From the IMG/VR virus record IMGVR_UViG_2693429774_000011: a DNA stretch of 40,169 bases; one strand, given 5' to 3'. The position numbers and the translations under genes were made by a program. The notes under the pieces were generated by a model. The model had not been told where the DNA came from, searched no databases, and saw only the letters and a program-made list of their open reading frames with translations. Of this stretch, positions 2,801-37,792 are shown in pieces. Each line of letters opens with the position of its first letter. The first letter of the stretch is position 1. This DNA is from a virus. Lineage: Duplodnaviria > Heunggongvirae > Uroviricota > Caudoviricetes.

Positions 2801-2866
2801 TGGCGGAGAGAGGGGGATTTGCCCCCCCGGTAGAGTTGCCCCTACTCCGGTTTTCGAGACCGGTCC
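2801..2866 (-). other. prophage attachment-site remnant: 3' about 66 nt of a tRNA-Ser (serU-like), 5' half absent
   Basis: minus strand reads GGACCGGTCTCGAAAACCGGAGTAGGGGCAACTCTACCGGGGGGGCAAATCCCCCTCTCTCCGCCA, matching the anticodon-arm-to-CCA part of E. coli tRNA-Ser(CGA) as recalled, except T-loop TT to GG; truncated side faces the prophage. Confidence 0.65.
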
Positions 2867-2946
2867 AATCATCAAACGAAACATAAAATTAATTCACATT
2901 ATGAGGAAAAGTATCTTTTTTGTACTATGTAAATTCAAAGACTTAG

Positions 2947-4498
<1,552 letters not shown>

Positions 4499-35963: not shown

Positions 35964-36033
35964 ATGTACCTCCGGTGTACATATTACATGATTGAAATGA
36001 ACCTTCAAGATACTTGTACCTTAACGGTACAAG
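35964..36033. promoter_or_regulatory. operator / divergent promoter region between cro and cI
   Basis: palindromes ATGTACC-N5-GGTACAT (35964-35982) and CTTGTACC-TTAA-CGGTACAAG (36013-36033); minus-strand TTGAAG-16-TAATAT promoter toward cro. Confidence 0.55.
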
Positions 36034-36048: not shown

Positions 36049-36723
36049 ATGAAAACAATCCATGACATCCGGCGGTCTAACGCCAGAAAACTGAGAGATG
36101 GTGTTGGCGGGAATTCTTCCTTTGCCACTATGATTGATCGCGAGCCAACCCAGACCAGCAGGTTTATGGGAGATGGTGCTACTAAAAATATCGGTGACAG
36201 CATGGCACGACACATCGAAAAATGTTTCGACCTGCCTGTCGGATGGCTCGATCAAGAACACCAGACAACGAACATCACAAAAAAACCTGATGTTTCAATC
36301 ACTAATAAACAAATCACATTAGTCCCTGTCATATCATGGGTACAGGCCGGAGCATGGAAAGAAGTTGGATATTCTGAGGTTGATTTGAGCACAGCAGAAA
36401 CGTATCCCTGCCCTGTACCCTGTGGGGAAATGACTTATATCTTGCGGGTGATAGGTGATTCAATGATTGATGAGTACCGCCCGGGAGACATGATTTTTGT
36501 CGATCCTGAAGTACCTGCCTGCCACGGTGACGACGTTATTGCATTGATGCACGATACAGGTGAAACCACCTTCAAAAGGTTGATAGAAGATGGGACACAG
36601 CGTTATCTCAAAGCGTTAAACCCAAACTGGCCTGAGCCTTACATTAAGATCAACGGTAATTGCTCTATAATTGGTACAGTGATTTTCTCAGGAAAACCAA
36701 GAAGATACAAAATCAAAGCCTAA
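36049..36723 (+). CDS. CI-type prophage repressor (HTH + S24 LexA-like autopeptidase domain)
   Basis: 224 aa, C-terminal GDSMIDEYRPGD and KRL motifs of S24 peptidases. Confidence 0.85.
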   Translation: MKTIHDIRRSNARKLRDGVGGNSSFATMIDREPTQTSRFMGDGATKNIGDSMARHIEKCFDLPVGWLDQEHQTTNITKKPDVSITNKQITLVPVISWVQAGAWKEVGYSEVDLSTAETYPCPVPCGEMTYILRVIGDSMIDEYRPGDMIFVDPEVPACHGDDVIALMHDTGETTFKRLIEDGTQRYLKALNPNWPEPYIKINGNCSIIGTVIFSGKPRRYKIKA

Positions 36724-36735
36724 TCAATGTTTATG

Positions 36736-36758
36736 AACCTGCTTCGGCAGGTTTTTTT
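36736..36758 (+). terminator. intrinsic terminator after cI
   Basis: AACCTGC-TTCG-GCAGGTT followed by 7 T. Confidence 0.7.
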
Positions 36759-36762
36759 ATAC

Positions 36763-36790
36763 TTGACAATGTACCTTTGAGATACATAAT
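36763..36790 (+). promoter_or_regulatory. PL-like early promoter with operator-like palindrome in the spacer
   Basis: TTGACA, 16-bp spacer, CATAAT; ATGTACC...ATACAT inverted repeat (36769-36787) between the hexamers. Confidence 0.6.
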
Positions 36791-36916
36791 GTACCCAAGC
36801 GAAACAACAAACAGGCAGGACGCCCACGAAGTAGCCGCCTGGGGCATATGAAGTCCAGGATGATTCGTTGAGTCATGTTGTGCCACTAGGCACTCATGTT
36901 AAAGCAGGTGTATGAA

Positions 36917-37192
36917 ATGAAAGTCCAGATTTTAAACAATAACTGTGAAGTCGTTTGGTCATACGACATAGCCGCCCCTGTAGATCAGAGCGGCGATAGC
37001 TGGACCAATGGGAAACATCAGATTATGGCTGGAGTTGTGTTCTCTTTACGCCGTGCTTTGGAACAGGCTGAAGTATTTCCATCAGACCCTGAATGGAAAT
37101 GGCCTTTTTCTATTTGTCCAAATTCGGAGAGCACATTTCAGAAAATTGGTCAGAAAGCCGCACTCGAAGAGCATCAGCCAACTGTTTCCTGA
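36917..37192 (+). CDS. hypothetical protein, first gene of the PL-like operon
   Basis: 91 aa from the third in-frame ATG (AGGTG RBS); not Arg-rich, so not an obvious N-like antiterminator. Confidence 0.4.
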   Translation: MKVQILNNNCEVVWSYDIAAPVDQSGDSWTNGKHQIMAGVVFSLRRALEQAEVFPSDPEWKWPFSICPNSESTFQKIGQKAALEEHQPTVS

Positions 37193-37355
37193 TTTTTTCA
37201 GGTAACTCGTCGGCATCGCAGAAACAACAACGCTCGATCATGTTGAAAGCCGATTCGTAGAACTGTTTCTGCTGAGTGTCGCTGAGACAGGAAAAGAGCG
37301 ACGTTACGATGATTTTATTAATTGCATTATCAAGTTCTTTTTCATCAAAAGTCAT
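37110..37355 (-). CDS. hypothetical acidic protein, convergent with and overlapping the previous ORF
   Basis: 81 aa, AAGGA RBS; overlaps the plus-strand ORF by 83 bp. Confidence 0.35.
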   Translation of the reverse strand: MTFDEKELDNAINKIIVTSLFSCLSDTQQKQFYESAFNMIERCCFCDADELPEKIRKQLADALRVRLSDQFSEMCSPNLDK

Positions 37356-37792
37356 TTGATTTTCCTTTTATGTATACGGGCTTAAAAGGATACCACCGAG
37401 CCTGAAGTGGTGAAAAGACAGGCACATAACAGCTAAGTATTTTCAACCAAAGAGAATCCTTAGCGTTGTGGTGAATGCGGCTCAGCGCACGCGGGTTAAG
37501 GTTGAGGCTGACAGTCGACCTTCTGTGGATACCCACCCGTCTGGTGTGCAACCTTCGCCAGGCACCGGGAGGCACCCGGCACCACAACTTTATGCTGTGT
37601 GTAGTCCTGGCGGTACCAGTTTGTACCCTTGCTTCCGGCTGGTACCGTCCTTTTTACAAAACAGAGAAGAGCATCACCGGACGACGGGCTCATAACCCAA
37701 TCCATCCGGGCGGCTGCCACCGCAGGTGTTCTTCTCTGTTTTGTGGAGAAACTAATCGGCCTTGCAGGGTCGATATGATGAGGAGCAGCAAA
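37356..37792 (+). other. GC-rich noncoding region with nested inverted repeats (possible structured RNA / terminator)
   Basis: no credible ORF on either strand; CGGTACCAG / CTGGTACCG stem (37611-37647) followed by TCCTTTTT; AACAGAGAAGA / TCTTCTCTGTT long-range pairing (37660-37670 with 37730-37740). Confidence 0.4.

Follow-up and report, generated by a model that had tools for sequence, protein, structure and literature searches.

The DNA analysed here (the window, 40,169 nucleotides) is that of phage SfV and has 99.5% identity to U82619; the SfV sequence has been publicly available since 2002. The repressor gene cI is followed by a terminator, a promoter with two operators, a conserved leader, and two small convergent genes that overlap at their 3' ends, arranged as follows:

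36735–36760, plus strand: intrinsic terminator of the cI transcript, with an 8 bp GC-rich stem and a T-run (GAACCTGCTTCGGCAGGTTT-TTTTAT)
36763–36790, plus strand: PL-type sigma-70 promoter; −35 TTGACA (36763–36768), 16 nt spacer, −10 CATAAT (36785–36790); 11/12 matches
36770–36786, no strand assigned: operator OL1 (TGTACCTTTGAGATACA), within the promoter spacer; 1 mismatch to TGTACC-N5-GGTACA
36790–36806, no strand assigned: operator OL2 (TGTACCCAAGCGAAACA), spanning the probable transcription start; 2 mismatches
36806–36867, plus strand: conserved leader of ~60 nt with the hairpin CCUGG (36838–36842)/CCAGG (36855–36859)
36917–37192, plus strand: orf33, 91 aa, PHROG 3195 (full-length profile match, E = 3.8e-69), first gene of the early-left operon
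37110–37192, no strand assigned: 3'–3' ORF overlap of 83 nt; the conserved cores of both proteins share ~44 nt (37128–37171)
37110–37355, minus strand: convergent acidic gene, 81 aa, pI 4.6, PHROG 3311 (full-length profile match, E = 1.2e-55), predicted three-helix bundle
37363–37367, minus strand: Shine-Dalgarno AAGGA of the minus-strand gene, 7 nt before its ATG
37387–37423, minus strand: near-invariant element upstream of the minus-strand gene, GCCTGTCTTTTC-ACCAC-loop-GTGGT-ATCCT, with a 5 bp hairpin and an extended −10-like sequence, TGGTATCCT

The early-left promoter and its leader

The cI gene stops at 36723, directly before the hairpin at 36735–36760 that is annotated in U82619 as a putative rho-independent terminator. 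The promoter that follows is the sole site on either strand of the window with at least 11 of 12 consensus matches. Block-shuffled sequences contain a mean of 0.67 such sites, with at least one in 47% of shuffles, so a single site is unremarkable by chance and the weight of the PL assignment rests on position and operators rather than on the match. The 17 bp dyad TGTACC-N5-GGTACA is present twice at the promoter, with 20 bp from start to start, and three times in the cI–cro intergenic region (at 35965, 35998, and 36015, with 1, 3, and 0 mismatches, respectively); no site with 0–1 mismatch occurs in the rest of the window. Prophages that share this immunity type have invariant half-sites and a variable 5 bp centre, the pattern expected for an operator.

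The first-pass annotation had proposed a near-consensus, PL-like promoter right after the cI terminator with an operator-like palindrome in its spacer, and these assignments hold: the palindrome is a one-mismatch copy of the dyad found between cI and cro, and the promoter lies beyond the 3' end of cI on the same strand as yfdP…xis-int, with two OL copies of that dyad. The arrangement supports identification as a PL/OL-type early-left promoter of a lambdoid phage, with putative repression by CI and transcription probably starting near 36797.

Near-identical copies of the leader lie behind six promoter/operator types in E. coli and behind others in Salmonella, Klebsiella, and Yersinia. Compensatory changes at two positions of its stem (G-C/U-A/C-G) make this the single hairpin with covariation support; folding of single sequences gives nothing remarkable for the leader or, on either strand, the right-hand element (z −0.7 to −1.4), and the leader has no Rfam match. 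SfII retains the leader together with only the first 21 codons of orf33, and in Yersinia the leader is found downstream of the gene pair, ~500 nt further down, such that the order of the elements is not fixed.

The HK022 put RNA (PMC9378689) serves as a comparison for the leader only. Like put, the leader is a conserved RNA of ~60 nt just downstream of PL and upstream of a terminator-like structure, and is common to phages of different immunity. Unlike put, it has one covarying hairpin and a shifted position in Yersinia, and it shares no sequence similarity, the HK022 PL–nun region having only chance matches of 8–12 nt to the leader and the right-hand element. Neither in sequence nor in structure does the leader resemble putL or putR.

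Two convergent protein genes and their overlap

Downstream of PL lie the leader, orf33, and sequence antisense to the whole minus-strand gene, leading towards an STnc100-like RNA and yfdP-yfdQ-yfdR…xis-int. No terminator is found on the plus strand from orf33 up to 37609, and transcripts from PL must therefore cross the minus-strand gene; a terminator-like hairpin is present at 37609–37655, ahead of the rest of the operon. The STnc100 match at 37443–37658 spans the full model length but scores 39.5 bits, below the gathering score of 47 (E = 3.4e-6), and the element is at best a diverged STnc100 relative.

Annotators have tended to record one ORF of the pair, orf33 alone in the SfV record and by PGAP, and the minus-strand ORF alone in phage 720R4 and in Klebsiella and Yersinia genomes. 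In the GenBank entry for SfV, the start of orf33 is placed at 36896 (98 aa). All of the diverged homologues and a homology breakpoint in phage 720R4 favour the ATG at 36917 (91 aa), the start used in the first-pass annotation. That annotation also described the 83 bp overlap of the 91- and 81-residue ORFs, found at 37110–37192, and an acidic convergent ORF with its own ribosome binding site, borne out by the pI of 4.6 and the AAGGA at 37363–37367.

Evidence that both ORFs are protein-coding comes largely from their non-overlapping parts, which account for 70% of orf33 and 66% of the minus-strand ORF. Among five diverged sequences, each ORF's own frame has no stops and a dN/dS of ~0–0.26 in these parts, and all other frames contain 5–33 stops; for orf33 alone the figures are 0 stops and 0–0.26, with 9–24 stops in the other frames. 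In both ORFs dS is saturated and dN is ~0.2. The variation in each frame is concentrated at its own third positions (for orf33, 23/65, 14/64, and 44/64 variable sites at codon positions 1, 2, and 3), and the third-position bias flips from the plus to the minus frame at the boundary, with substitutions inside the overlap tracking the minus frame. The N-terminal ~70 residues of orf33 are clearly under selection, and the last ~20 are encoded inside the minus-strand gene. The 439 nt module has no indels among the five sequences, and both proteins are recognisable at 25–65% identity across nine lineages. Polymorphism within E. coli in the orf33-only part (12 non-synonymous and 5 synonymous changes) appears near neutral, but divergence is very small and the IMG/VR loci were selected for identity in the minus-strand ORF, which biases the counts, and we give them little weight.

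Judged by these substitution patterns, each ORF is a true protein gene maintained by purifying selection. The first-pass annotation had left open a spurious ORF or a real sense/antisense pair; the first possibility falls and the convergent pair stands, with both frames conserved in the diverged homologues and present together in every lineage, and conservation of only one frame not seen. Both protein families are annotated as function unknown, and scans of the two proteins and their distant relatives against Pfam, PADLOC, and NCBIfam, as well as profile searches of PDB sequences with both proteins, returned only noise. The AlphaFold2 model of orf33 is poor (pLDDT 46).

The overlap ranges from 74 to 281 nt in the nine lineages. 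Against a synonymous-recoding null, its length is that expected by chance given the minus-strand protein (P 0.2–0.78). The overlap length is therefore not itself selected and gives no independent support for antisense regulation. The frame of orf33 reaches the minus-strand gene without meeting a stop, and we read the overlap as a consequence of tight packing rather than as a selected dual-coding segment. The antisense RNA relation between the two genes would follow from the gene layout.

Upstream of the minus-strand gene, GAAGGAAA is kept 7–9 nt before the ATG in 9 of 10 lineages, and the element at 37387–37423 varies in only 7 of 38 columns, compared with ~42% in coding parts. All E. coli, Salmonella, and Klebsiella lineages have this element; in Yersinia and in lineage L105 it is diverged yet recognisable. 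SfII has the element, which includes TGGTAWCYT, and the Shine-Dalgarno, with the element at the same distance before an unrelated minus-strand ORF. These patterns suggest a candidate promoter or 5' end for the minus-strand gene. A consensus sigma-70 scan lists no promoter upstream of the gene and lists the element's hairpin as terminator-like on the minus strand; the candidate −10 (TATCCT, preceded by TG) is paired with a poor −35, and a promoter role does not account for the element's conserved hairpin. In the sole transcript dataset tried, the start-site supplements for S. flexneri M90T, the promoter and protein strings found no match.

Distribution and relationship to known loci

The pair recurs in the convergent, 3'-overlapping arrangement in all nine lineages, always beside a prophage repressor and with differing flanking genes, in Escherichia/Shigella, Salmonella, Klebsiella, and Yersinia as well as more distant metagenomic lineages. 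Homologues of orf33 down to 42–50% identity all adjoin a prophage repressor. The pair is present in 425–550 of 5426 complete E. coli genomes, and both ORFs are intact in 20/20 haplotypes. SfII and SfIV have other minus-strand genes in the same slot, and a ClpX-type zinc finger is encoded beside orf33 in 14 of 76 E. coli loci and is fused to orf33 in one lineage, L106. The diverged loci were obtained from exact-protein look-ups and a third scan of viral contigs; the first viral-contig scan yielded 80 near-identical E. coli loci, uninformative on divergence, and neither the genome-contig scan with the minus-strand protein nor a contig scan with its Salmonella version gave confirmed loci.

The layout resembles that of lambda (PL-nutL-N, convergent with sieB) and of the Rac prophage (racR-ydaG-ydaF, convergent with sieB), in that the repressor gene is followed by an early-left promoter under repressor control, a conserved RNA element, and a small first gene, which runs straight into an accessory gene of opposite orientation that is antisense to the PL transcript. 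A gene that faces and adjoins the first gene in the PL operon, as sieB does in lambda and Rac, is also present here. However, N and sieB of lambda simply abut and ydaF and sieB of Rac overlap by 4 nt, whereas the SfV-type pairs overlap by 74–281 nt, as compared with 0–4 nt, and unlike N and sieB, orf33 and the minus-strand gene are strictly co-inherited. The minus-strand product is a soluble, acidic, helical protein of 81 aa, and the lambda sieB product is annotated as 184 aa (555 nt). Neither protein of the pair has sequence or fold similarity to N or SieB, nor a Pfam or PHROG match to SieB. The translations of ydaG and ydaF, read by eye as possible orf33 homologues, have no resemblance to it, and the analogy to Rac is thus positional only. 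To read the pair as an exclusion locus would be a conjecture from positional analogy to sieB alone. In P22, Ranade and Poteete reportedly described in 1993 a sieB/esc locus with sas antisense RNA.

Antisense controls with 3' overlaps are familiar in lambdoid phages, as with lambda OOP RNA and cII, paQ and Q, and P22 sar and ant. As in these systems, duplex formation and polymerase collision would be expected to allow only one of the convergent SfV transcripts to be expressed at a time, an expectation drawn from gene layout. They differ in that both strands encode conserved proteins and the length of the overlap has no sign of selection.

Possible roles of the gene pair

We favour a reading in which the locus is the early-left control point of SfV joined to a conserved two-gene cassette, whose proteins would be made in opposite states and are likely an effector and its antagonist, with antisense silencing from PL; we give this a probability of about 0.5. 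In a lysogen, CI would shut PL, leaving only the minus-strand gene expressible, probably from the extended −10-like element ~30 nt upstream of its Shine-Dalgarno. Its transcript meets no good terminator before orf33, the leader, and PL, and would also damp leaky PL expression. Upon induction or infection, the strong PL would read through the minus-strand gene and make orf33, silencing the opposing gene by polymerase collision and RNA duplex formation. Given that the two genes are never found apart, their products most likely work on one process, one as effector and the other as antagonist, in the manner of SieB and Esc/sas in P22; neither protein resembles a characterised family, such that the effector/antagonist idea is guilt by position and co-inheritance only.

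A possible but less probable explanation is that the two genes have no functional relation and simply sit tightly side by side in a mosaic 'moron' slot, the minus-strand gene being a lysogenic-conversion gene and orf33 an ordinary early gene, with no regulatory role for the overlap or the antisense relation. The chance-expected length of the overlap is in keeping with this, as are the different cassettes that occupy the slot in SfII and SfIV and the separate association of orf33 with the ClpX-type zinc finger, through neighbouring genes or the L106 fusion. However, unrelated mosaic neighbours would be expected to separate, and in nine diverged lineages the genes are together in the same arrangement with different flanks; PL transcripts must moreover cross the minus-strand gene regardless.

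A bolder version of the favoured reading, which we hold to be doubtful, is an undescribed two-protein lambdoid module in which a lysogen exclusion effector is paired with an early-lytic antagonist, or a toxin with an antidote, under a convergent-transcription switch driven by PL. A ClpX-type zinc finger, fused to orf33 or encoded beside it in some lineages, would tie this half of the module to ClpX-dependent proteolysis.

A toxin–antitoxin pair serving prophage stabilisation or abortive infection, either type I-like with a 3'-overlapping antisense RNA or composed of toxin and antidote proteins, is improbable. The par (fst-RNAII) and txpA/ratA type I loci have convergent 3' overlaps, and the SfV locus resembles them in being convergent, in overlapping by tens of nucleotides, and in residing in a prophage; strict co-inheritance, a small acidic partner, and a slot known for exclusion genes also fit. 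It departs from them in lacking a small hydrophobic toxin, the maximum Kyte-Doolittle means over 19 residues being 0.89 for orf33 and 0.80 for the minus-strand ORF, with no hydrophobic or membrane segment in either. Moreover, the antisense partner is not a non-coding RNA but a conserved protein gene under purifying selection, and the defining type I features are absent. Those of type II are likewise absent, the genes being convergent rather than a co-directional, autoregulated operon, with no toxin, antitoxin, or defence family matches above noise in Pfam, PADLOC, or NCBIfam. The toxin–antitoxin arrangement raised in the first-pass annotation is thus not sustained, with neither type I nor type II features, no hydrophobic segment, and no family matches (Pfam, PADLOC, NCBIfam, PDB).

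It is very unlikely that orf33 encodes an N-like antiterminator with the leader as its nut site, even though the order of PL, conserved RNA element, first gene, and convergent gene is lambda-like and the terminator-like hairpin at 37609–37655 before the rest of the operon makes some form of antitermination plausible. Its product has only two arginines among 91 residues, at positions 45–46, none near the N-terminus and no arginine-rich motif, in agreement with the earlier remark that the first ORF is not arginine-rich and probably not N-like. By direct reading, the boxA-like GCTCTTTA is absent from 36797–36916. The leader also follows many promoters with a differing first gene, persists in SfII where orf33 is lost after codon 21, and lies downstream of orf33 in Yersinia.

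That only one ORF is a gene and the other a chance open frame on the opposite strand is almost certainly wrong, for although records usually list one ORF, and open frames opposite genes are common (the plus frame opposite the minus-strand gene being stop-poor), only the own frames are stop-free in the five sequences, with saturated dS and dN of ~0.2, the third-position bias switches strand at the boundary, and both proteins are traceable at 25–65% identity through nine lineages.

The PL promoter with its operators is textbook lambdoid biology. What is new is that two 'hypothetical' ORFs treated by annotators as alternatives are both conserved genes, forming an obligate convergent pair at the slot where lambda, P22, and Rac keep the sieB exclusion gene; the pair is carried by about a tenth of complete E. 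coli genomes and also by prophages of Salmonella, Klebsiella, and Yersinia. Were the two genes merely packed neighbours, the finding would be ordinary. Recognition of both would correct a systematic under-annotation in which one member is dropped from almost every record. If the two-protein module is real, an unrecognised system for defence or self-immunity would occupy the classical sieB position in ~8–10% of complete E. coli genomes, and if a lysogen/lytic switch between exclusion and self-immunity operates here, a small and common system would be added to the repressor-adjacent defence repertoire.

The early-left promoter and its operators

The segment 36700-37800 is 99.5% identical over its full length to Shigella flexneri phage SfV (U82619.2). 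After cI the SfV record lists a putative terminator, 'orf33', a second putative terminator, and then the early-left genes orf32 to orf28, xis and int; cro and the CII-like genes lie on the opposite strand at the left side of the locus. The place of orf33 and its convergent partner in this gene order is therefore that of PL in a lambdoid phage. The locus comprises:

35965-36031, three operator copies (at 35965, 35998 and 36015) between cI and cro
36049-36723, plus strand, cI (SfV record U82619.2)
36735-36760, plus strand, cI terminator, a GC-rich 8-bp hairpin followed by a T-run
36763-36790, plus strand, PL promoter TTGACA-16-CATAAT, directly past the terminator
36770-36786, in the promoter spacer, putative OL1, palindrome TGTACCTTTGAGATACA with one mismatch to the dyad TGTACC-N5-GGTACA
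36790-36806, putative OL2, a second dyad copy 20 bp beyond OL1
36806-36867, conserved leader of about 60 nt just downstream of PL
36917-37192, plus strand, orf33, 91 aa with 2 Arg
37110-37355, minus strand, convergent ORF ('minus gene'), 81 aa, pI 4.6
37387-37423, right-hand element GATACCACCGAGCCTGAAGTGGTGAAAAGACAGGC, 37 nt, 7 of 38 columns variable

The near-consensus promoter with an operator-like palindrome in its spacer, reported right after the cI terminator by the first-pass annotation, is present. It is the sole site in the 40-kb window with at least 11 of 12 consensus matches, although chance alone would yield a site of this quality about half the time, so the match by itself is weak proof, and the spacer palindrome carries more weight. 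The copies between cI and cro, the best of which is a perfect dyad (TGTACCTTAACGGTACA), define the SfV operator consensus, and a dyad scan found no further sites with one mismatch or fewer elsewhere in the window. In other prophages of the same immunity type variation is confined to the five bases at the centre, the half-sites being constant. We take the dyads at 36770 and 36790 to be the OL1 and OL2 operators of PL; promoter and operators are of the standard kind.

Coding evidence and the overlap

The ORFs are as first described, with a 91-aa product that is not Arg-rich overlapping by 83 nt an acidic 81-aa ORF with its own ribosome binding site (AAGGA, 7 nt ahead of the ATG). In GenBank the SfV orf33 starts at 36896, giving 98 aa, seven codons more than from 36917; MKVQIL opens all diverged homologues, and homology to phage 720R4 begins at 36915, a recombination breakpoint, so we regard 36917 as the real start. 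Annotations conflict: orf33 alone is called in SfV, whose record lacks the minus gene, and by PGAP, and the minus ORF alone is called in phage 720R4 and several Klebsiella and Yersinia genomes. Each ORF matches a PHROG of its own, both listed as function-unknown. True diverged orthologues of orf33 share 63–67% identity (protein search), and those of the minus ORF in Klebsiella, Salmonella and Yersinia 56–64% (profile search); most remaining 'divergent' protein matches are copies with a frameshift, a truncation or an internal deletion.

Coding potential was assessed in aligned DNA of the 439-nt module carrying both ORFs from five sequences (SfV, and loci L004, L006, L091 and L092), which align with no indels.

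Coding test of the non-overlapping regions (variable sites at own-frame third positions versus the other two)
orf33 only: own-frame stops 0; other five frames 9–24 stops; dN about 0.2; dS 0.7 to saturated; dN/dS 0–0.26; variable sites 44/64 vs 23/65 and 14/64
minus ORF only: own-frame stops 0; other five frames 5–33 stops; dN about 0.2; dS above 1.4 or saturated; dN/dS 0–0.15; variable sites 41/54 vs 18/55 and 12/54

By these measures both ORFs are protein genes. The first-pass annotation had also considered that one ORF might be spurious, and had proposed comparing conservation and dN/dS in each frame; both frames are conserved, which argues for a real pair, and a spurious ORF is refuted by the lack of own-frame stops, the low dN/dS and the own-frame third-position bias in each.

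The overlap itself varies from 74 to 281 nt across lineages, and the plus-ORF tail is highly variable, with products of 91 to 162 aa even among close Enterobacterales lineages. When each minus gene was recoded synonymously 5000 times, the plus frame was open as far as observed in 20–78% of recodings. Conserved parts of both proteins coincide over 44 nt (37128-37171), where substitutions track the minus frame, with 9 of 15 falling on its third position, and overall variability is no lower than elsewhere. The single difference between the window and SfV inside the overlap leaves the minus protein identical and changes one orf33 residue, which fits minus-frame constraint there. The first 65–70 orf33 residues are thus clearly under selection, and the final 20 or so probably represent read-in that is tolerated. 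From the recoding null and the minus-frame substitutions we therefore read the overlap as packing, a consequence of having no room between the genes, and not as a dual-coding segment kept by selection.

Because a terminator scan found no plus-strand terminator before 37609, any transcript from PL has to traverse the minus gene in full, and this read-through does not depend on the ORF overlap. Further downstream, 37443-37658 (plus strand) matches Rfam STnc100 over the full length of the model but below threshold (39.5 bits, gathering score 47, E = 3.4e-6). The match ends with a 13-bp hairpin and CUUUUU (37609-37655, z −3.6), a terminator that PL transcripts would meet ahead of yfdP. The STnc100-like RNA could be a 3′-end-derived sRNA of the orf33 transcript; STnc100 and PasD have been treated as related prophage sRNAs (bioRxiv 10.64898/2026.05.13.724894). 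Just ahead of yfdP is a very stable 25-bp stem (37651-37748, plus strand, −51 kcal/mol, z −6.9) whose 5′ arm contains the U-tract of the preceding terminator, so that the two compete and may constitute a switch.

The pair and its flanking elements

None of the lineages examined lacks either gene, and in each the two are convergent and overlap. The set covers SfV with some 80 loci from E. coli or IMG/VR, Salmonella (L004), Klebsiella and other Rac-like prophages (L006, L091, L092, L101, L103), Yersinia enterocolitica (L098), and three remote relatives (L105, L106, L107) retrieved via orf33 alone, in which the minus partner is recognisable at roughly 25–45% identity. A prophage repressor immediately adjoins the pair in all of them, and the downstream genes vary (kilR/gam, recE or yfdP). 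The module occurs in 425–550 of 5426 complete E. coli genomes; in the E. coli sample it is preceded by six promoter/operator types, and both ORFs are intact in 20 of 20 haplotypes. We put at about 90% the probability that both genes are real and form an obligate convergent pair at PL.

In two E. coli strains (NZ_CP081762.1 and NZ_CP061754.1; hits H41 and H52) the match to the 439-nt module is split into two parts spanning 1067 bp, which suggests an insertion of about 630 bp within the pair.

The slot beside the repressor is mosaic. SfII (L097 1480-1974) retains the leader and the first 21 orf33 codons, then a stop, followed by another convergent small-ORF pair with a 39-nt overlap, its plus-strand member having 68 aa and the other being the annotated SfII_36, 63 aa long but listed with 77 aa because of an upstream GTG start. 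SfIV (L003 2615-3850) has two other annotated minus-strand genes that partly overlap one another, with a hairpin and T-run on their strand just before the leader and a boxA-like GCTCTTTAACAA beside it. In the Salmonella prophage (L004 2552-3706) the repressor is separated from the leader/orf33 pair by the gene of a 384-aa HSDR_N-domain protein, which lies where rexAB would be and probably acts in defence.

The leader is nearly identical behind many unrelated PL promoters: E. coli alone supplies at least six promoter/operator types unrelated to one another, and Salmonella, Klebsiella and Yersinia add more. The CCUGG/CCAGG hairpin within it (36838-36859) shows compensatory changes at two positions. 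The leader has no Rfam match and no likeness to HK022 put, and may act in cis as a nut- or put-like RNA. In Y. enterocolitica (L098, about 2850-3490) it lies downstream of the pair instead of between promoter and orf33, so the order is not fixed and the cassette can sit on either side.

The right-hand element is conserved far above the flanking genes and reads ...CTTTTC-ACCAC-loop-GTGGT-ATCCT on the minus strand, with GAAGGAAA and the minus-gene ATG about 25–30 nt beyond. TGGTAWCYT, the stem and the Shine-Dalgarno are retained in 9 of 10 lineages, and all three stand at equal distance upstream of the unrelated minus ORF of SfII. Given this conservation and fixed spacing, we regard the element as the leading candidate to supply the minus gene with its promoter (extended −10) and 5′ end. 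A consensus promoter scan called no promoter at the element and listed its hairpin as terminator-like on the minus strand; the conserved 5-bp hairpin is unaccounted for by a promoter role.

Possible roles of the pair

The same positional order is found in lambda (OL/PL, nutL, N, then opposite-strand sieB abutting N with zero gap) and in K-12 Rac (racR, ydaG, ydaF, then convergent sieB overlapping ydaF by 4 nt). The minus gene thus occupies the place of sieB, and orf33 corresponds in position to N or ydaF; no sequence similarity to these counterpart proteins was found.

Neither protein has a family, defence-system, solved-structure or fold match, or a hydrophobic segment; the minus protein is confidently predicted to be a three-helix bundle. 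The sole functional lead is a ClpX-type zinc finger. L106 (101-664) carries a fusion of the orf33 domain with a C4 finger of this type (PF06689; 30.3 bits, gathering score 27). A separate 67-aa ClpX-type zinc-finger gene stands between leader and orf33 in 14 of 76 E. coli loci (L019 3448-3651; 41.4 bits). These arrangements hint that orf33 works with ClpX-like recognition.

From the observed anatomy we infer a three-step mechanism. In the lysogen CI would occupy OL1 and OL2, and transcription would come from the minus gene only. Upon induction PL would fire through the leader and make orf33, and its transcript, antisense over the minus gene, would shut that gene off. Since the two proteins are never found apart, they may be lysogen-state and lytic-state partners acting on one process, to which P22 SieB with Esc/sas is the closest analogy. 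We propose such an expression switch tentatively, at somewhat less than even odds, and an exclusion or self-immunity function is unlikely. That the two are unrelated neighbours, tightly packed, is plausible, although their strict co-inheritance argues against it. An N-like antiterminator, which the first-pass annotation had thought improbable for orf33, is opposed by the lack of an arginine-rich motif and by the persistence of the leader where orf33 is absent, and the pair lacks the defining features of a toxin-antitoxin system.

Unless some phenotype comes to light, the pair is of moderate to low significance; it joins the convergent accessory genes at PL as a new, common and uncharacterised member of that class.
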